Positions 10,248-18,557 of a DNA stretch of 18,927 bases are shown in pieces. This DNA is from a virus (Duplodnaviria; Heunggongvirae; Uroviricota; Caudoviricetes), in IMG/VR virus record IMGVR_UViG_2872152978_000012; one strand, 5' to 3'. The number at the start of each line of letters is the position of its first letter. Position 1 is the stretch's first letter. Position numbers and translations under genes: made by a program. The notes under the pieces were generated by a model. It worked only from the letters and a program-made list of their open reading frames with translations, was not told where the DNA came from and did no database searches.

Positions 10248-11375
10248 TTATTTGTGATATTGTGGTTGTTGTGCGACAGACATTGCTATTCGGCCCATAT
10301 CCCAGATAAAACCCGCCAGCTCACGTGCAACAGCAACAATTGTAATATTGACATTCTTTCCTTTGGCCTGAAGTTTTCGATACCTCTTACAAAGCCTGAG
10401 TTGAGCATCCCATGCTCTGTCAATGACGGGGCGGGGTAAATTTTCCTGCCTTTTTTGTATTGCCGGACTGATGCGTGCCGGATGACGGTAACTCCACGCT
10501 GCCTCGACCAATAGCTTTCTGGCATAGCTGTTTCCGGCTTTGGTAATGCTGCCCTGATGTCTGCTTCCACCCGATGAATATTCTGATGGCGTGATACCAA
10601 ACCATGACATCAGTTGTCGTGGATGTTCAAAACGGGTCAGATCACCCAGTTCAGAAATTAATCCAACCGCAGTAATAAACTGAATCCCTCGCATGGCTTG
10701 CAGCGCCTCTACTACCGGATACAGCCTCCATTCGGTAACGGCCTCCTTCAGGGCGGATTCCAGCCGTTCACATTGTGCCTGCCGGTCTTCTATTGTACGA
10801 CGGTGTTCGTCAAAAGCTAATTGTCGCCAGGGACTTTCGAATGAGTATTTGCTGAGCCAGCGTCGGTGTGCAGGGCCCCAATCTGCTCGCCCGACATAAT
10901 GGACCCCATGAACCAGAAGAAACGATTTCAGACGTTGCCTTGCATGCCGTAAATCATCGCGGGCAGATGCCCATGCCCGGGCCAAATCCCGGAATGCCTC
11001 ATCTTCAATGCCGGGTACGTAGACAGCAGAAAGATCTCCTGCACGCAGTGAACGCACAAGTCTGATGGCATCACGGCGATCGGTTTTAACCCGCTCCCCC
11101 GGTTTTTTCGGGATAAGTGAGGGGGCGCAGACCATGCAGTCAAAACCGGATTTCACCAGCCGACGATAAAGTCCATAACCACAGGGCCCCGCTTCATAAA
11201 CGATACTGACCTGCGATGACTTTGACCTGAGACGTTTACAAAGATTCTGAATATCAGTAGGTGATGTGCCAATTTTACCCATCAGTTCAACAGGTTCTGA
11301 ATTGATAGCATAAGCGACAGTAATCGATTCTTTGTGAACATCTAACCCGACGTACAATGTGTTATTGTTGTTCAT
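10248..11375 (-). CDS. IS110-family transposase (DEDD RuvC-like domain plus C-terminal Tnp domain), 375 aa
   Basis: MNNNNTLYVGLDVHKESITVAY... is a typical DEDD N-terminus. The C-terminal region has the family pattern ...SGGSRHQGSITKAGNSYARKLLVEAAWSY.... The start is taken at ATG 11375, which has a GGAGG ribosome-binding site; the longer ORF-track start at 11423 is probably not used. Confidence 0.85.
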   Translation of the reverse strand: MNNNNTLYVGLDVHKESITVAYAINSEPVELMGKIGTSPTDIQNLCKRLRSKSSQVSIVYEAGPCGYGLYRRLVKSGFDCMVCAPSLIPKKPGERVKTDRRDAIRLVRSLRAGDLSAVYVPGIEDEAFRDLARAWASARDDLRHARQRLKSFLLVHGVHYVGRADWGPAHRRWLSKYSFESPWRQLAFDEHRRTIEDRQAQCERLESALKEAVTEWRLYPVVEALQAMRGIQFITAVGLISELGDLTRFEHPRQLMSWFGITPSEYSSGGSRHQGSITKAGNSYARKLLVEAAWSYRHPARISPAIQKRQENLPRPVIDRAWDAQLRLCKRYRKLQAKGKNVNITIVAVARELAGFIWDMGRIAMSVAQQPQYHK

Positions 11376-11649
11376 GCTGGCCTCCGTGGTGGAAATACCG
11401 GGGTGTAGCAACAGCTCACCCATGCGGCTCTGACAACGATGTTAACCCGCGTTAAATATCCCACGTTGGCCAGCATCTGTCTCACGGAAAGTCATACTGC
11501 CTTACTGTTATCCGGTCGATAAAGTTATTCACCATGATAATAACGAAATCCCGGCAGGTCTTTAAAACAGTTCCGTAATAAATATCCGGTTTCATTCTTA
11601 TATGCCAGCAATGGCAGGGGTTCGCTCAACCTTAATTAAGGAGAAAAAC

Positions 11650-11847
11650 ATGATTACCAGTTATGAAGCCACTGTTGTAACTACTGATGACATTGTTCAC
11701 GAGGTTAATCTGGAAGGAAAGCGTATTGGCTACGTGATTAAGACAGAAAATAAAGAAACCCCATTCACTGTGGTTGATATCGACGGTCCATCAGGCAACG
11801 TTAAAACACTTAACGATGGTGTAAAAAAATGTGTCTGGTGCACATAG
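11650..11847 (+). CDS. small hypothetical protein (65 aa) with C-terminal CxxC, first gene of the phage early-region remnant
   Basis: Strong ribosome-binding site (AAGGAG, 7 nt before ATG 11650). Product MITSYEATVVTTDDIVHEVNLEGKRIGYVIKTENKETPFTVVDIDGPSGNVKTLNDGVKKCVWCT. The upstream Met at 11602 is probably not used. Function unknown. Confidence 0.5.
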   Translation: MITSYEATVVTTDDIVHEVNLEGKRIGYVIKTENKETPFTVVDIDGPSGNVKTLNDGVKKCVWCT

Positions 11848-11923
11848 GAAAGAATCTGCCCGCAGAAAAAAAAGCCGAATTTCTGGCAACTCTGATTGCA
11901 ATGAAATTAAAAGGTGAAATCTG

Positions 11924-11953
11924 AAAAAAAGAAAGCCTGCACACTGTGCAGGC
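11924..11953 (-). terminator. palindromic hairpin (gcctgcaca-c-tgtgcaggc) followed by a T-run on the minus strand
   Basis: 19-bp perfect palindrome at 11935-11953. The plus-strand A-run 11924-11934 gives TTTCTTTTTTT after the stem on the minus strand. There is no U-run after the stem on the plus strand. Confidence 0.4.
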
Positions 11954-12023
11954 CTGAGTGAAGAACCTGGGACATTTATTCATCACTCGCAGTAATTTTA
12001 ATCTGAGTTGAGGTTAAAAAACA

Positions 12024-13964
12024 ATGAACACCGATAAACAAGTTTACCCACTGTATTACGAAGCAAAAAATGACAAAGTAAGAAAACGTCTCGGTATTAA
12101 AGGCGGTTTTTACTGGGCTGAAGCGAAAAAATTATCCATTGCCATCTCCCGTGGTGCTGTTGCGATTGACGATGCTGGATACGATGAAGATGACTTCAAA
12201 AAACCTGTTCGCGTCAATTTGCCCGTTGTTGATGACCTCCCACCAGAAGGCGTGTTTGATACGGAATTCTGCAACCGTTACGAAAAAGGCGGGGAAGATG
12301 GCATCACAATGGTATTTATCGCGCCCTCACCCTCTGCGCAGGACAAACCAGCCAGCACTGACAATACCAATGTTAATGGCGAAGACATGACGGAGATTGA
12401 GGAGAATATGCTACTCCCGATTTCTGGTCAGGAGCTGCCCATTCGCTGGCTTGCTCAACACGGCAGCGAAAAACCGGTAACGCACGTTTCACGCGACGAA
12501 CTCCAGGCATTACACATTGCACGGGCTGAGGAACTACCAGCTGTTACTGCCCTGGCTGTTTCGCATAAAACCAGCCTGCTCGACCCGCTGGAAATTCGCG
12601 ATCTCCACAAACTCGTGCGTGATACTGACAAAGTTTTCCCTAATCCTGGCAATTCAAATCTGGGACTGATGACTGCTTTTTTCGAAGCATATCTGGATGC
12701 CAACTACACCGATCGCGGTCTGCTGACAAAAGAGTGGATGAAAGGAAATCGTGTTTCACGCATCACGCGCACGGCTTCCGGTGCGAATGCTGGCGGCGGG
12801 AACCTCACCGATCGCGGCGAAGGTTTCGTCCACGATCTGACGTCGCTGGCGCGCGACGTAGCCACTGGCGTACTGGCCCGTTCAATGGACGTGGATATTT
12901 ATAACCTTCATCCGGCACACGCTAAACGCATTGAGGAAATTATCGCTGAAAATAAACCACCCTTTTCTGTTTTCCGCGACAAATTCATCACCATGCCTGG
13001 CGGGATGGATTATTCCCGCGCCATCGTGGTTGCGTCAGTGAAAGAAGCACCGATTGGTATCGAGGTCATCCCCGCGCACGTCACTGAATATCTGAACAAG
13101 GTACTGACTGAAACCGATCATGCCAACCCTGATCCGGAAATCGTGGATATTGCCTGCGGTCGCTCCTCTGCCCCGATGCCGCAACGTGTAACAGAAGAAG
13201 GAAAACAGGATGATGAAGAAAAACCGCAACCATCTTGCGCAATGGCAGATGAACAGGCAACGGCTGAAACAGTGGAACCGGATGCAACTGAACATCATCA
13301 GGACACGCAGCCGCTGGATGCTCAGTCACAGGTAAATGCTGTTGATGCGAAATATCAGAAACTGCGGACAGAACTCCATGAAGCCCGGAAAAACATTCCG
13401 CCCAAAAATCCTGTCGATGCAGACAAATTACTGGCTGCCTCTCGCGGAGAATTTGTTGAAGGGATTAGCGACCCGAATGATTCGAAATGGATTCCCGGTC
13501 ATCATATCTCCTCAAATGAAGTCAAAAAAACGGAAAATGAAGTGCGACAGACTGAAGATAAACAGCACCAGAACAGCGAACCGGAGGAGGGAACACCCTG
13601 CAATCAGACTGGCGAGGATAACTGCCCTGACTGTGGCGCGGTGATGGGAGACGCAACTTATCAGGAAACTTTTGACGAAAAAAAACCAGATGAAGCACAG
13701 GAAGAAGAGCCGAAGAAAACGGAAAAAGCTGATGATTTGTTGCCGGAGAACGCTGGCAGCGATCAGCATAATGATAGCAATAATGAAACTGGCGAAGATG
13801 AACTCAACTGGAAAAAACAGGTGTTGATTGCGGCGGTTTACGGTTTATGTGCGAATCCTGCGTGCATAGCCTATGCGCCTGCAATCCCTGGCATCGCAAT
13901 GATGATTGCCAACAAGCTTGAAAATTTTGGAGTGACCAGTGATGAGCGCTTACCCGATTTTTGA
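12024..13964 (+). CDS. RecE (exodeoxyribonuclease VIII)-like protein, N-terminal region and acidic linker only; no recognisable C-terminal nuclease domain; hydrophobic C-terminal tail
   Basis: Ribosome-binding site GAGGT about 8 nt upstream. From about residue 60, long stretches match my recollection of the Rac RecE N-terminal region (for example [69 protein letters not shown]). It diverges after ...SNNETGED, where RecE would continue into its nuclease domain; here it ends in a 45-aa hydrophobic segment. Similarity is from memory, not from a search. Confidence 0.5.
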
Positions 13965-14238
13965 TCGTATTGAAGAAATGGCATGGGCTCGTCACTACCA
14001 GCAGATCGTTCGTGAAGAAAAAGAAACGGAACTGGCGGACGACCTGGAAAAAGGTCTGCCTCAGCACCTGTTTGAATCGCTCTGCATCGACCATTTGCAA
14101 CGCCACGGTGCCAATAAACAGGCAATCAGCCACGCATTTGATGATGATGTTGAGTTTCAGGAGCGCATGGCAGAACACATCCGGTACATGGCTGAAACCA
14201 TTGCCCACCACCAGGTTGATATTGATTTGGAGGACTAA
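13942..14238 (+). CDS. gam: Gam host-nuclease (RecBCD) inhibitor, short GamS-like form (98 aa)
   Basis: [98 protein letters not shown] aligns closely with lambda GamS (...[43 protein letters not shown]...[29 protein letters not shown]). Ribosome-binding site GGAG. The start overlaps the upstream stop by 23 bp. Upstream in-frame stops rule out a long GamL form. Confidence 0.8.
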
Positions 14239-14288
14239 AATCTATGGCGCTTTTTCAACGAGCAATAAACACACAGGCCTATCTAAAA

Positions 14289-14712
14289 GCAGGAATTATG
14301 AGGTAGCCTGAGTTTAACAGACACTCCTTCCTGAAATAGAATGGCATCAGAAGGAGCTAATAATGAGCAGAAAAAACCAACGTTACTCTAAAGAGTTCAA
14401 AGCCGAAGCTGTCAGAACGGTTCTTGAAAATCAACTTTCGATCAGTGAAGGCGCTTCCCGATTATCCCTTCCTGAAGGCACTTTAGGACAATGGGTTACC
14501 GCCGCCAGAAAAGGGCTCGGTACTCCTGGTTCCCGCACGGTGGCTGAACTGGAATCTGAAATTCTGCAACTGCGTAAGGCGTTAAATGAAGCTCGCCTTG
14601 AGCGAGATATATTAAAAAAAGCAACAGCGTATTTTGCACAGGAGTCGCTGAAAAATACGCGTTAATCGAACAATGGCGACAACAATTTCCCATTGAAGCG
14701 ATGTGTCAGGTA
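14289..14712 (+). mobile_element. IS600 (IS3 family), copy 1, 5' fragment (left end, orfA, first 4 codons of orfB)
   Basis: Left inverted repeat TGAGGTAGCCTGAGTTTAAC... at 14289. Sequence is identical to copy 2 up to atgtgtcaggta, then replaced at 14713 by the IS911 right end. Confidence 0.8.
14363..14665 (+). CDS. IS600 OrfA (IS3-family transposase N-terminal HTH protein)
   Basis: 100 aa, MSRKNQRYSKEFKAEAVRTVLENQLSISEGASRLSL...; identical to the second copy at 17299-17601. Confidence 0.85.
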   Translation: MSRKNQRYSKEFKAEAVRTVLENQLSISEGASRLSLPEGTLGQWVTAARKGLGTPGSRTVAELESEILQLRKALNEARLERDILKKATAYFAQESLKNTR

Positions 14713-15889: not shown

Positions 15890-15991
15890 TGGAGCACCTG
15901 TGTTGTTCTGAGGTGAGCATATCACCTCTGTTCAGGTGGCCAAATTCAGTGTGCCACTTCATTTCAAGAAGAGATGCAGTAGCGCAGGCAA

Positions 15992-16410
15992 TTGAAGCAA
16001 ATCATTATATATACAAAAACTACTCTCCTGCTGCCTTCCTTAATTGAAAAACTTAAAGGGTTCGACTCATTTACTATGGCAAACTGGATTGAACGTTACA
16101 AAACGATTCTTATAAGGAGAAAAGTGTCCAGAAATACTTATAAAATTCGGGCAAATCAACTGAAGACAATAAAAGAAAAATTGGGAGAGATTTTACTGAC
16201 AGAAATAACCACTCGCCATATTGCCGAGTTTCTTGATTTGTGGATTGAAGGAGGGAAAAACACAATGGCAGGATCAATGCGTTCTGTGTTGTCTGATATG
16301 TTTCGCGAGGCCATTGTTGAAGGACGTATATCTCAAAATCCAGTCACGCCAACAAGAGCACCGAAAATAGTAGTTACAAGAGAACGACTGAAACTAAAGA
16401 CTGAGGTGTA
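15992..16410 (+). pseudogene. int: lambda-type tyrosine integrase, N-terminal/core-binding fragment (arm-binding domain missing; interrupted by IS600 at 16410/16411)
   Basis: ...ANWIERYKTILIRRKVSRNTYKIRANQLKTIKEKLG...SMRSVLSDMFREAIVEGRISQNPV... parallels lambda Int residues of about 60-175. The frame is closed upstream next to the IS911 end, so the roughly 35-60 N-terminal arm-binding codons are absent. Confidence 0.7.
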
Positions 16411-16444
16411 CTGGCAATAGCGGACACTACCATTTGTTCTTTTT

Positions 16445-17263
16445 TTAAGCAGCCATCTGATGATATTTTTCCCTGAAGGCTGCCGGGGAGATATTCCCCA
16501 GACGAGAGTGACGACGCTGACGATTGTAGAAAATCTCAATGTATTCCCGTATTACTGAGATGGCTTCATCCCGGTTATTAAAACGATAGTGGCTCAGGCT
16601 CTCATTTTTCAGCGTTCCCCAGAAGCTTTCCATCGGAGCGTTGTCGTAACAGTTACCTTTACGCGACATTGATGTTTTCAGACCAGACTGCTCCTGTATG
16701 ACCCGGTAATCGTATGCGCAGTACTGTGAACCTCGATCAGAGTGGTGGATTAGCCCGGCAGGTGGGCGCTGGCTCCTGAGCGCCATAAACAGGGCTTTAC
16801 CTGTCAGCTCTTTTGTCATGCGCTCTCCCATGGCGTAGCCGACAATTTCGCACGTATAAACATCTTTGATGCCAGCGAGGTACAACCATCCCTCCTGTGT
16901 GGCAACATACGTCAGGTCCGCCACCCAGACCTGATTTGGTGCTGTAGGAGCGAACGTCTGGTTCAGCAGATTTGGCGCAACTGGCAGATTGTGGTTCGGG
17001 TTCGTAGTCGCTCTGAACTTGCGTTTCTGCTTACAGCGTAGCCTTAGCTCCTTACGAAGACATGCCAGTCGGTCACGACCAACGATGATGCCATTCTCTG
17101 CCAGCTCCGTCTGGAGCCGCCGGGTTCCATATGTTTCGCGAGTGCGGATATGTGCCACCTTAATCTCCAGTTTTAGCCGCTCATCACTTTGTTTTCTGTC
17201 TGAGGGTTCATGCTGTACCCAGTTGTAATAACCGCTCCTGGATACACCAAATACCTGACACAT
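16445..17263 (-). CDS. IS600 OrfB (DDE integrase-core transposase domain)
   Basis: ...HHSDRGSQYCAYDYRV...MSRKGNCYDNAPMESFWGTLKNE... is a DDE core with the IS3-family C-terminal motif. Confidence 0.85.
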   Translation of the reverse strand: MCQVFGVSRSGYYNWVQHEPSDRKQSDERLKLEIKVAHIRTRETYGTRRLQTELAENGIIVGRDRLACLRKELRLRCKQKRKFRATTNPNHNLPVAPNLLNQTFAPTAPNQVWVADLTYVATQEGWLYLAGIKDVYTCEIVGYAMGERMTKELTGKALFMALRSQRPPAGLIHHSDRGSQYCAYDYRVIQEQSGLKTSMSRKGNCYDNAPMESFWGTLKNESLSHYRFNNRDEAISVIREYIEIFYNRQRRHSRLGNISPAAFREKYHQMAA

Positions 17264-17298
17264 CGCTTCAATGGGAAATTGTTGTCGCCATTGTTCGA

Positions 17299-17601
17299 TT
17301 AACGCGTATTTTTCAGCGACTCCTGTGCAAAATACGCTGTTGCTTTTTTTAATATATCTCGCTCAAGGCGAGCTTCATTTAACGCCTTACGCAGTTGCAG
17401 AATTTCAGATTCCAGTTCAGCTACCGTGCGGGAACCAGGAGTACCGAGCCCTTTTCTGGCGGCGGTAACCCATTGTCCTAAAGTGCCTTCAGGAAGGGAT
17501 AATCGGGAAGCGCCTTCACTGATCGAAAGTTGATTTTCAAGAACCGTTCTGACAGCTTCGGCTTTGAACTCTTTAGAGTAACGTTGGTTTTTTCTGCTCA
17601 T
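17299..17601 (-). CDS. IS600 OrfA
   Basis: Identical to the 100-aa product at 14363-14665. Confidence 0.85.
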   Translation of the reverse strand: MSRKNQRYSKEFKAEAVRTVLENQLSISEGASRLSLPEGTLGQWVTAARKGLGTPGSRTVAELESEILQLRKALNEARLERDILKKATAYFAQESLKNTR

Positions 17602-17664
17602 TATTAGCTCCTTCTGATGCCATTCTATTTCAGGAAGGAGTGTCCGTTAAACTCAGGCTACCTC

Positions 17665-18194
17665 AGACATACAACTGCATCAGGGAGGCAGCAGATCAAC
17701 TTCCGGCATGGTTCCCATTAGCTATGGATTTAGCCCTTGTAACAGGACAACGTCGCGAAGACATAACGAATATGCGGTTCAGTGATATTTATGATGATCG
17801 TCTCCACATCAGGCAAATTAAGACAGGAATGATGATTGCTATCCCCCTGTCACTCAGCCTTCCTGTCGCTGGTTTACGACTTGGTGCAGTAGTTGAACAG
17901 TGCCGCATGGTAAGTAGGGGGGATTATCTAATCAGTGCCGGGATTAGAAAAAACAGCCCTGACGGCAGCATTCACCCGGACGGCCTGACAAAGAAATTTG
18001 TCGCAGCCAGAAAATTAACAGGTATCCAGTTCAGTGAAAACCCACCAACTTTTCACGAAGTCAGAAGCCTGGCTGGACGATTGTACAAAGAAACATGTGG
18101 AGAAGAATTTGCTCAGCGTCTACTTGGCCACACATCGGAGAAGACAACAAAAATGTATCTTGATGAGAGAGAAAAAACGTACTTACTGCTCTGA
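17665..18194 (+). pseudogene. int: lambda-type tyrosine integrase, C-terminal catalytic fragment
   Basis: LAMDLALVTGQRREDI (catalytic Arg), PPTFHEVRSLAGRLY (H-x-x-R), LLGHTSEKTTKMYLDE (His and Tyr nucleophile) closely parallel lambda Int. After removing IS600 and one copy of the GAC repeat the reading frame is continuous with the N-terminal fragment. Confidence 0.8.
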
Positions 18195-18241
18195 TTTTAA
18201 CGTAAATGGATTGTTAAATGTATTTTGGTTGTGATATAACC

Positions 18242-18291
18242 AAAAAAGACCGGAATACAGAAATTCGAGTAAATTTCGGGGAATTTCGGGG
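18242..18291. repeat. integrase-proximal repeats: core-like half-site plus tandem AATTTCGGGG repeats; putative arm-type Int/accessory-factor sites
   Basis: aaaaaagaccggaatacag (18242-18260) resembles the att core. aaattcgag, aaatttcgggg and aatttcgggg occur in tandem at 18261-18291. Confidence 0.4.
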
Positions 18292-18325
18292 AGACATTTG
18301 CAACTAATTGATTTCAAATGCAATT

Positions 18326-18359
18326 AAAAAAAGACCGAATACGATTCCTGTATTCGGTC
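18326..18359. repeat. attR: right copy of the 34-bp imperfect direct repeat; overlaps the SdsR terminator
   Basis: See attL. The right arm (tacgattcctgtattcggtcc) matches the bacterial SdsR 3' hairpin. Confidence 0.6.
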
Positions 18360-18427
18360 CAGAGAAATGGCTCTTGGAGAGAGCCGTGCGCTAAAAGTTG
18401 GCATTAATGCAGGCTTAGTTGCCTTGC
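18326..18427 (-). ncRNA. sdsR: SdsR (RyeB) small regulatory RNA, about 102 nt
   Basis: The minus strand reads gcaaggcaactaagcctgcattaatgccaacttttagcgcacggctctctccaagagccatttctctggaccgaatacaggaatcgtattcggtc plus a U-run, which matches my recollection of enterobacterial SdsR, including the 3' terminator hairpin. It lies between pphA and yebY as in E. coli. Confidence 0.75.
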
Positions 18428-18515
18428 CCTTTAAGAATAGATGACGACGCCAAGTTTTCCAGTTTGCGTGCAAAATGGTCAATAAAAAGCGTGGTGGTCA
18501 TCAGCTGAAATGTTA

Positions 18516-18557
18516 AAAACCGCCCGTTCTGGTGAAAGAACTGAGGCGGTTTTTTTA
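18516..18557. terminator. bidirectional intrinsic terminator between yebY and sdsR/ryeA
   Basis: aaaaaccgcc-cgttctggtgaaagaactga-ggcggttttttt: a GC stem flanked by an A-run on one side and a T-run on the other, 30 bp past the yebY stop. Confidence 0.55.

Follow-up and report, generated by a model that had tools for sequence, protein, structure and literature searches.

A nuclease-less relative of RecE with a conserved C-terminal element adjoins gam in a decayed Rac-like prophage of a Shigella-type genome

The DNA stretch analyzed in this study (hereafter the window) comprises 18,927 nucleotides (nt) of the virus record IMGVR_UViG_2872152978_000012 (Caudoviricetes). It is the remnant of a Rac-like prophage, which is riddled with insertion sequence (IS) elements and located at yebY in a Shigella-type genome. 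Two neighboring genes on its plus strand are the subject of this paper. The first one (12024..13964) is an intact open reading frame (ORF), which opens with an ATG preceded by a GAGG sequence 10 nt upstream and encodes a 646 amino acid (aa) relative of RecE that lacks the nuclease domain ('RecE-2' type, by Pfam, PHROG and NCBIfam comparison). The second one is gam (13942..14238), which is also intact and encodes a predicted GamS-type RecBCD inhibitor of 98 aa. We consider it highly probable that the 646-aa ORF belongs, as an intact representative, to a conserved protein family of the lambdoid early-left operon, in which the N-terminal region of RecE is joined to a two-helix end of about 42 residues and, in E. 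coli and Shigella phages, gam comes next.

When the 646-aa protein was compared with the NCBIfam model of RecE (NF007259), residues 1–591 aligned with model positions 1–596 of 877. The score of 1064 bits was lower than the curated cut-off for RecE exodeoxyribonuclease VIII (1269 bits) and thus, the protein does not qualify as a RecE equivalog. Residues 1–641 aligned with positions 1–621 (of 883) of phrog_607, which is labeled 'exonuclease VII', and Pfam Exonuc_VIII (PF06630) matched residues 52–189 with an E-value of 1.3e-37. Nothing else of note was found by Pfam in this ORF. Over the shared part (the first ~590 residues), the protein is about 87% identical to RecE proteins of E. coli including that of M19. 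An earlier reading of this DNA, which was made from the sequence alone (hereafter the original prediction), had likened the ORF to the N-terminal region and the acidic linker of RecE, and the NF007259 and PF06630 matches bear this out. It had also stated that the exonuclease domain is lacking. Here, we found no nuclease domain in the Pfam scan of the 646-aa protein, and as a control the bona fide 877-aa RecE of E. coli M19 exhibited its PD-(D/E)xK-like domain (PF12684) at residues 626–861. Tblastn searches in all frames of the window (E ≤ 0.01) did not detect a RecE nuclease domain, RecT, Bet or Exo. A RecE nuclease shifted into another frame was ruled out by tblastn of the window with the nuclease domain, and since no frame gave a match, a simple frameshift pseudogene is excluded. 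Directly downstream of the ORF we did not find recT; gam is located there instead.

AlphaFold2 (AF2) modeling of the protein suggested three confident folded parts with disordered acidic linkers between them. For comparison, the ratios of nonsynonymous to synonymous substitution rates (dN/dS) were calculated from a codon alignment of six copies, which represent three lineages. The N-terminal alpha/beta domain (aa 1–100; 12024..12323) was modeled with a predicted local distance difference test score (pLDDT) of ~71–90 and has dN/dS values of 0.05–0.16 when the divergent copy L008 is excluded. The second domain is helical (aa 130–245; 12411..12758; pLDDT ~75–90) and varies between lineages with a high inter-lineage dN. 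The third part is a helical core (aa 265–388; 12816..13187; pLDDT 74–94), which is conserved in the alignments and has a dN/dS of ~0.03–0.14. This core is preceded by a Gly-rich loop, and in the alignment of relatives the loop and the conserved polar core extend over aa 253–366 (12780–13130). Across relatives of ~25% identity, the polar core residues D263, R264, Y293, Y330, S331, R332, E363, T364, D365, and H366 are nearly invariant. Together with the Gly-rich loop, they look like a putative binding or catalytic site of unassigned kind.

The first acidic linker (aa 389–440; 13188..13343) is predicted to be disordered (pLDDT <50), and its residues 396–440 have a net charge of −11. The second one (aa 491–595; 13494..13808) carries a net charge of −21 and was defined by alignment, charge count, and AF2. 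Inside this second linker, the alignment revealed a degenerate zinc ribbon (13599–13634, plus strand). The family pattern is C-x-x-C ... C-P-D-C, and in the window protein one Cys of the first CxxC is gone via a deletion of ~15 aa relative to L004 and L005, two co-linear prophages described below. This gap is common to the window copy and its closest relatives, and in part of the family (P0129, remote clades) there is no ribbon at all. Foldseek comparison of the AF2 model with the PDB gave no match at E ≤ 1, and there was no fold match in BFVD.

The C-terminal tail of the protein is a conserved domain (aa 596–637; 13809..13934), as indicated by dN/dS values, alignments, and AF2. In the AF2 model of the window protein, it consists of two helices (596–610 and 612–633), which are joined at an Asn-Pro pair (pLDDT 62–77), and AF2 also gave a two-helix tail in a remote homologue; in both proteins the tail follows a long disordered acidic linker. 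The window-type tail reads W-K-[KR]-Q-x-x-[IL]-AA-x-x-GLCANPA...IP-x-IA-x-MIAN-x-LENFG. When remote relatives are included, the motif becomes L-x-[WFY]-x-Q-x-L-x-x-AA-x-x-GLCANPA-(7)-I-(3)-A-(3)-A, and its position inside the last ~55 residues places the window protein in the tail subfamily, which we define here by this motif. No other part of the protein has a Kyte–Doolittle mean above 1.6 (19-residue windows), and the peak of 1.72 at residues 600–618 confirms the hydrophobic end of ~45 aa noticed originally.

For residues 596–637, we obtained dN/dS values of 0.03–0.11 at inter-lineage dS of 0.5–2.8. These ratios are as low as those of the conserved core and far below those of the adjoining linker (0.2–0.56). 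The last nine codons, which overlap gam, are not conserved (dN/dS ~0.5–0.9). The L008 protein has a strongly divergent N-terminal half and yet the same tail, which indicates that the tail travels across mosaic backgrounds. A profile search with the tail among 1.84 billion representative proteins yielded 12 matches. These were located at the C-terminus except in one repetitive protein and one gam fragment, and they included relatives of only ~30% identity. Searches started from such relatives led to named homologues in Cedecea and Buttiauxella, and a scan of species-representative genomes added a homologue from Lelliottia; in phages of these three genera, the arrangement lacks gam. When eight remote proteins were aligned, the tail was the best-conserved segment. 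With a dN/dS this low and with this conservation in relatives of ~30% identity, the suggestion that the tail is plain out-of-context sequence had to be abandoned. In PHROGs, phrog_26058 (633 positions) has the tail motif at its end; the remote tails match it with an E-value of 4e-8 and the window tail type (L004 sequence) does so weakly (E 0.15). Two PHROGs of small proteins, phrog_2728 and phrog_24397, appeared at E 0.06–0.3, which is not significant. Comparison of the tail with Pfam and with PDB sequences gave nothing significant, a protein search with the isolated tail gave just six short fragments, and tblastn of the tail against phages gave none, for which masking of low-complexity sequence is the probable cause.

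The extreme C-terminus of the ORF (13935–13964; DDEYMPNF in the sister clade) resembles the C-terminal tip DDDIPF of the single-stranded DNA-binding protein SSB. This likeness is missing in the 75/02-type clade (…GGDKS), and the segment overlaps the gam start with a dN/dS of ~0.9. As the segment is also unconserved, the likeness may be due to chance.

The gam-frame ORF spans positions 13939–14238. Its likely start is the ATG at 13942, nine nt after a GGAG ribosome-binding site (13929..13932, plus strand), which lies inside the upstream ORF, and the two genes overlap by 23 nt (13942–13964). Pfam Gam (PF06064) matched the product over its full length (positions 1–97 of 98, E 8e-56). Thus, the original description of an intact GamS-like gene with its own ribosome-binding site and a 23-bp overlap was correct. 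Proteins of the Gam family block RecBCD by occupying its DNA-binding site, as seen in lambda GamS structures. The window Gam shares ~80% identity with lambda GamS (PDB 5MBV and 2UUZ) over all 97 aligned residues, with an E-value of 2.5e-50 to 5MBV, and at the level of the family it would be assigned as RecBCD inhibitor.

In E. coli and Shigella phages, the tail ORF and gam are a regular pair, and gam overlaps the stop codon of the tail ORF. Our IMG/VR sample involved 80 tail-bearing loci, 66 of E. coli/Shigella type and 14 remote ones. In 64 of the 66 E. coli/Shigella-type loci, a gam ORF directly follows the tail ORF. One of the two exceptions ends too early to be assessed and the other one has a gam-length N-terminal extension on its bet ORF. 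Downstream of gam, we found either bet-exo or, in the window's own class, an AAA_24 ATPase gene. No gam, bet or exo was detected in the 14 remote loci, and in those examined the tail protein is the last large early-left gene, followed by small ORFs, xis, and int. The coupling to gam is therefore fixed in the E. coli clade but is not a property of the whole family. In remote phages, a conserved ORF of 59–70 aa (MYRITATIQKPGG.PVEW…), which belongs to phrog_5753 (no assigned function), either overlaps the stop codon of the tail protein or directly adjoins it (L078:5135-5338, L082:5135-5314, L075:5135-5347). This is the position of gam in the E. coli phages.

The nearest relatives of the locus reside in E. 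coli chromosomes with a DNA identity of 98–98.6% across positions 11550–14300. There, the 646-codon ORF and gam are followed by genes for a 365-aa AAA_24 ATPase and a DUF1187 protein, xisR, and intR. In intact Rac-like prophages, the gene order is kilR-ydaE-racC-[ORF of 653–690 aa]-gam-bet-exo-(ralR)-xis-int, and the order kilR-ydaE-racC-[ORF]-gam-...-xis-int was found in L004, L008, L002, and L007. The Stx phage 75/02 encodes a 682-aa protein that is 56% identical and has the same tail; its gene overlaps gam by 4 nt and bet-exo come next. The same ORF-gam region is carried by phiPOC-J13, a phage that can be induced, produces plaques and establishes lysogeny in E. coli and S. flexneri (PMC4193171). 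A screen of 5426 complete E. coli genomes recovered the junction of tail and gam in 106 of them, where it falls into three sequence classes, and the junction is also present in four distinct sequenced phages. The 646-aa form itself occurs at 97–100% identity in S. sonnei, S. flexneri, S. boydii, S. dysenteriae, and enteroinvasive E. coli (EIEC).

Database homologues indicated that the N-terminal region of RecE is combined with three other C-termini besides the tail. RecE proper (~884 aa) carries the PD-(D/E)xK nuclease PF12684, a fusion protein of 814 aa (P0122) has a DnaQ-like 3'-5' exonuclease (PF16473), and a third form (793 aa) ends in a further domain (phrog_7838). The gene of the DnaQ-type fusion is the last one before xis-int and has neither an annealase partner nor gam. 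When we compared L004 and L005, which are co-linear prophages at the same attachment site, a clean cassette swap became apparent, with [tail+gam+bet+exo] in one prophage and [nuclease domain+recT] in the other. Homology between the two prophages breaks off at the RecE domain boundary, immediately behind 'SDETGE', and resumes at ralR. This clean swap means that the junction is real in evolutionary terms, and both alternatives are old, complete gene forms. The original proposal of a recombination junction between a RecE/RecT module and a kil-gam-type module therefore captured a real cassette difference between prophages, but this is an old, selected architecture that is found in a plaque-forming phage and not a local accident of this remnant. 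Two additional observations concern other members of this group. For the remote proteins with RecE N-region and tail (P0142-P0151), precomputed Pfam annotation gives the domains PF27430 and PF27432. In P0148, the domain at the C-terminus (residues 515–763, motif KALSKLGFSADVY) is at most vaguely reminiscent of Rad52/Sak-type annealases; Pfam gave no match and PHROGs labels it 'exonuclease' (phrog_7838).

The remainder of the window is decayed. Upstream of the ORF, we found an ipaH gene, tail-fibre fragments, and several IS elements. The ipaH gene (1676–3391, plus strand) encodes an IpaH-type type III effector (LRR_TTSS and NEL E3 ligase, E 7e-77), and its presence marks the window as Shigella/EIEC-like. 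Between 5419 and 9914, there are two partial IS66-family copies in opposite orientation, so that both strands carry accessory ORFs as well as transposase ORFs that are split. They are followed by the transposase ORF of an IS110-family element (10248–11423, minus strand; Pfam transposase), which has cut the DUF1482 gene on its upstream side. Of the latter, the last 19 codons are left (11506..11562, plus strand; tblastn 100% to residues 45–63 of the DUF1482 protein of L001). The racC-like gene (11602..11921, plus strand; tblastn with RacC, phrog_4778) is frameshifted; an 81-aa ORF (11602–11847) continues in another frame to 11921, and the gene is likewise frameshifted in L001 / E. coli O121. Between racC and the 646-aa ORF, positions 11933–11955 form a GC-rich hairpin with a 10-bp stem and a T-run on the minus strand, which is terminator-like for that strand.

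Downstream of gam, the first 19 codons of a gene for an AAA_24 (Sak4-like) ATPase remain (14244..14300, plus strand; tblastn 100% to the start of the 365-aa L001 protein). The gene is cut by an IS element at ~14304, where homology to L001 stops. Its intact homologue in L001 (11697-12794) matches PF13479 (E 7.5e-14), phrog_1366 and, weakly, phrog_124 (Sak4-like). Hence, the window lineage has gam and a Sak4-like AAA_24 ATPase in place of bet-exo, an arrangement that includes no exonuclease. The downstream genes had been thought to be bet/exo or recT and xis, all removed by IS elements. The removal by IS elements and the loss of xis hold true, but the lost genes were those for the AAA_24 ATPase and DUF1187 and not bet/exo or recT. 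The prophage integrase gene is split by an IS into two pieces (15961–16401 and 17665–18194), and then the chromosomal yebY side of the attachment site follows; this region (15961..18927, plus strand) was identified by Pfam and by blastn with int-yebY of L004 (96–98%). The pL/N control region is gone from the window. The gene pair has outlasted the decay of this Shigella prophage, and there is nothing exceptional in its survival.

Homology to RecE, absence of the nuclease, purifying selection on the tail, occurrence in an infectious phage, synteny with gam, and exchange of the C-terminal part are demonstrated by these data, which leads to the question of function. For the N-terminal region of RecE no function is known according to two publications (PMC11611040, PMC11610958), and on this point the original prediction agrees with the literature. 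The same articles report that linear-linear recombination works far better with full-length RecE (Fu et al. 2012, via PMC11611040, PMC11610958). The nuclease domain of RecE assembles into a toroidal tetramer. Lambdoid Rec modules were surveyed in an article of 2025 (Genome Res, PMC12315714), which mentions 'RecE-2' proteins without nuclease domain and with unknown roles as well as DnaQ-like nucleases. This kind of protein has thus already been noticed, though it is uncharacterised. The window protein corresponds to this description on two counts. It is related to RecE and has no nuclease domain according to Pfam, NF007259, tblastn, and AF2, and it belongs to an early-left Rec module of a lambdoid phage, of which the window retains racC, the ORF, gam, and int.

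Exonucleases of at least two kinds occur as fusion partners of the N-terminal region, which is encoded in recombination modules. We therefore regard this region as a probable accessory or scaffold component, without catalytic activity of its own, of phage DNA-end metabolism, although with limited confidence. In RecE, a tetrameric domain occupies the position of the tail, and the small-xxx-small spacing of the tail and its strict conservation suggest that the C-terminal hairpin might supply self-association or partner docking; conversely, the oligomeric nuclease domain of RecE could take over the role of the hairpin. We would put the chances of this accessory role, including the function of the hairpin, at about one in three. 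Tentatively, and with slightly less confidence, we propose that the N-terminal region is an autonomous module and that the nuclease-less form is its separation-of-function version, in which the GLCANPA hairpin would dock or oligomerise and the protein would act in trans. Its partners might be Gam/Red in E. coli phages and enzymes of the host in other cases, and its task might be, for instance, to hold DNA ends together.

Several observations weigh against our reading of the family or against its validity for this particular copy. The mechanism suggested for the nuclease-less members is inference only, since there was neither a fold match for the model nor a domain-family match for the tail. 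The remote members and the DnaQ fusion lack an annealase or gam, and thus a Red/Gam-specific role would not be general. In the window, the zinc ribbon is degenerate and no promoter-like site was found upstream of the ORF on the plus strand. Moreover, the upstream ORF is disrupted in five of eight sister Shigella/E. coli loci of the window's sequence class in IMG/VR. Loss of the ribbon, lack of a promoter and disruption of sister loci indicate that this copy, although intact, may be silent or decaying.

The small-xxx-small spacing (A-x3-G, A-x3-A) that we read as a sign of self-association is typical of packed helices and would also be compatible with a C-terminal membrane anchor (tail-anchored or re-entrant hairpin), which would tether the N-terminal region to the inner membrane. 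The Kyte–Doolittle 19-mer peaks of 1.6–1.75 in E. coli-type tails, the basic residues (WKKQ/WKRQ) before the hydrophobic segment and the short stretch of just 10–25 residues after it fit such an anchor. On the other hand, the invariant Asn-Pro breaks the hydrophobic stretch, remote tails have acidic pairs (DE, EE, DD) in their second half with peaks of only 1.05–1.5, and the sequence is conserved much more strictly than is usual for anchors. We therefore regard the membrane anchor as the weaker alternative to self-association or docking and as rather unlikely.

Another scenario, which we rate as still less probable, is that selection has kept and domesticated gam, with or without the upstream ORF, in Shigella for an anti-RecBCD activity or another benefit to the host, while the remaining prophage decayed. 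At first glance, the intactness of gam in eight of eight loci of the window's class, compared with five disruptions of the upstream ORF, and the 97–100% identity of the 646-aa protein across four Shigella 'species' and EIEC appear to support selective retention, which had been offered originally as one explanation. However, at the disruption rate of the 1.9-kb neighbor, only ~0.8 hits are expected in eight copies of a 297-bp gene, so that zero is unremarkable and eight intact copies are no evidence for selection. Thus, this claim comes down to the intactness of gam, which is expected by chance for a target of 300 bp. The missing plus-strand promoter and the loss of the pL/N region also argue against domestication, and variation among 35 Shigella/E. 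coli variants of the 646-aa protein was too sparse to give a clear pattern. In addition, constitutive inhibition of RecBCD is expected to be costly.

It is very unlikely that the ORF is a RecE pseudogene or an accidental junction that runs into meaningless sequence before gam. Such a conclusion might be drawn from the NCBIfam score below the RecE cut-off, from the heavily degraded state of the prophage and from the tag 'incomplete; missing C-terminus', which the Prokaryotic Genome Annotation Pipeline (PGAP) attaches to the E. coli O121 orthologue. Elsewhere, though, PGAP annotates the same tail architecture as intact coding sequences; moreover, the tail is under strong purifying selection, an infectious phage retains it, relatives of ~30% identity from other genera have no segment that is better conserved, and no nuclease remnant is left in any frame of the window. 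Finally, a Kil/KilR-like peptide that inhibits cell division and became fused to the protein, an idea based on the position of the tail before gam, where lambda has kil, can practically be dismissed. The tail resembles neither lambda Kil (best pairwise E 3.4) nor Rac KilR (no match at E < 100), and in related prophages this ORF is preceded by a kilR gene of its own standing.

Recombineering relies heavily on RecE, and yet two thirds of this protein have no known function. The nuclease-less relatives show that the N-terminal region is kept by selection on its own, that it joins various C-terminal domains and that in this form it carries a small and very conserved C-terminal element. The C-terminal hairpin motif, the coupling to gam in E. 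coli/Shigella phages and the modular exchange of the C-terminal part are the new aspects of the present work. For annotation, our data imply that ORFs of this type should not be called exonucleases and need not be pseudogenes. If the N-terminal region is indeed an autonomous module, the plaque-forming phage phiPOC-J13 would offer a direct genetic handle on the role of the first 600 residues of RecE.

When compared with named systems, the window protein most closely recalls RecE (exodeoxyribonuclease VIII) of Rac, with which it shares the position after kilR-ydaE-racC, the acidic linkers and the zinc-ribbon region. The two proteins differ at their ends, as Rac RecE has a PD-(D/E)xK nuclease (PF12684, residues ~606–866) where the window protein has a two-helix domain of 42 aa, and the Rac gene precedes recT whereas the window ORF precedes gam. 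The label 'exonuclease VII' of phrog_607, a family that mixes nuclease-bearing and nuclease-less members, is a transferred annotation. The 'RecE-2' proteins of the lambdoid survey (PMC12315714) are related to RecE of Rac and Gifsy-1, nuclease-less by structure prediction and encoded in the early-left operon. The window ORF fits them, although the likeness is one by description only, and the main text of that article contains neither the C-terminal motif nor the coupling to gam. Like lambda GamS, the window Gam consists of 98 aa and has the position that gam holds before the annealase gene, and it is without the N-terminal extension of the GamL type. The first 14 codons of its gene, which overlap the upstream ORF, are unrelated to lambda DNA, and homology starts at position 13984. 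A counterpart with another C-terminus is the DnaQ-like fusion P0122 (814 aa), which occupies the same place in the operon. Its N-terminal region is 86% identical over 91% of the query, and it carries a DEDD exonuclease where the window protein has its tail.

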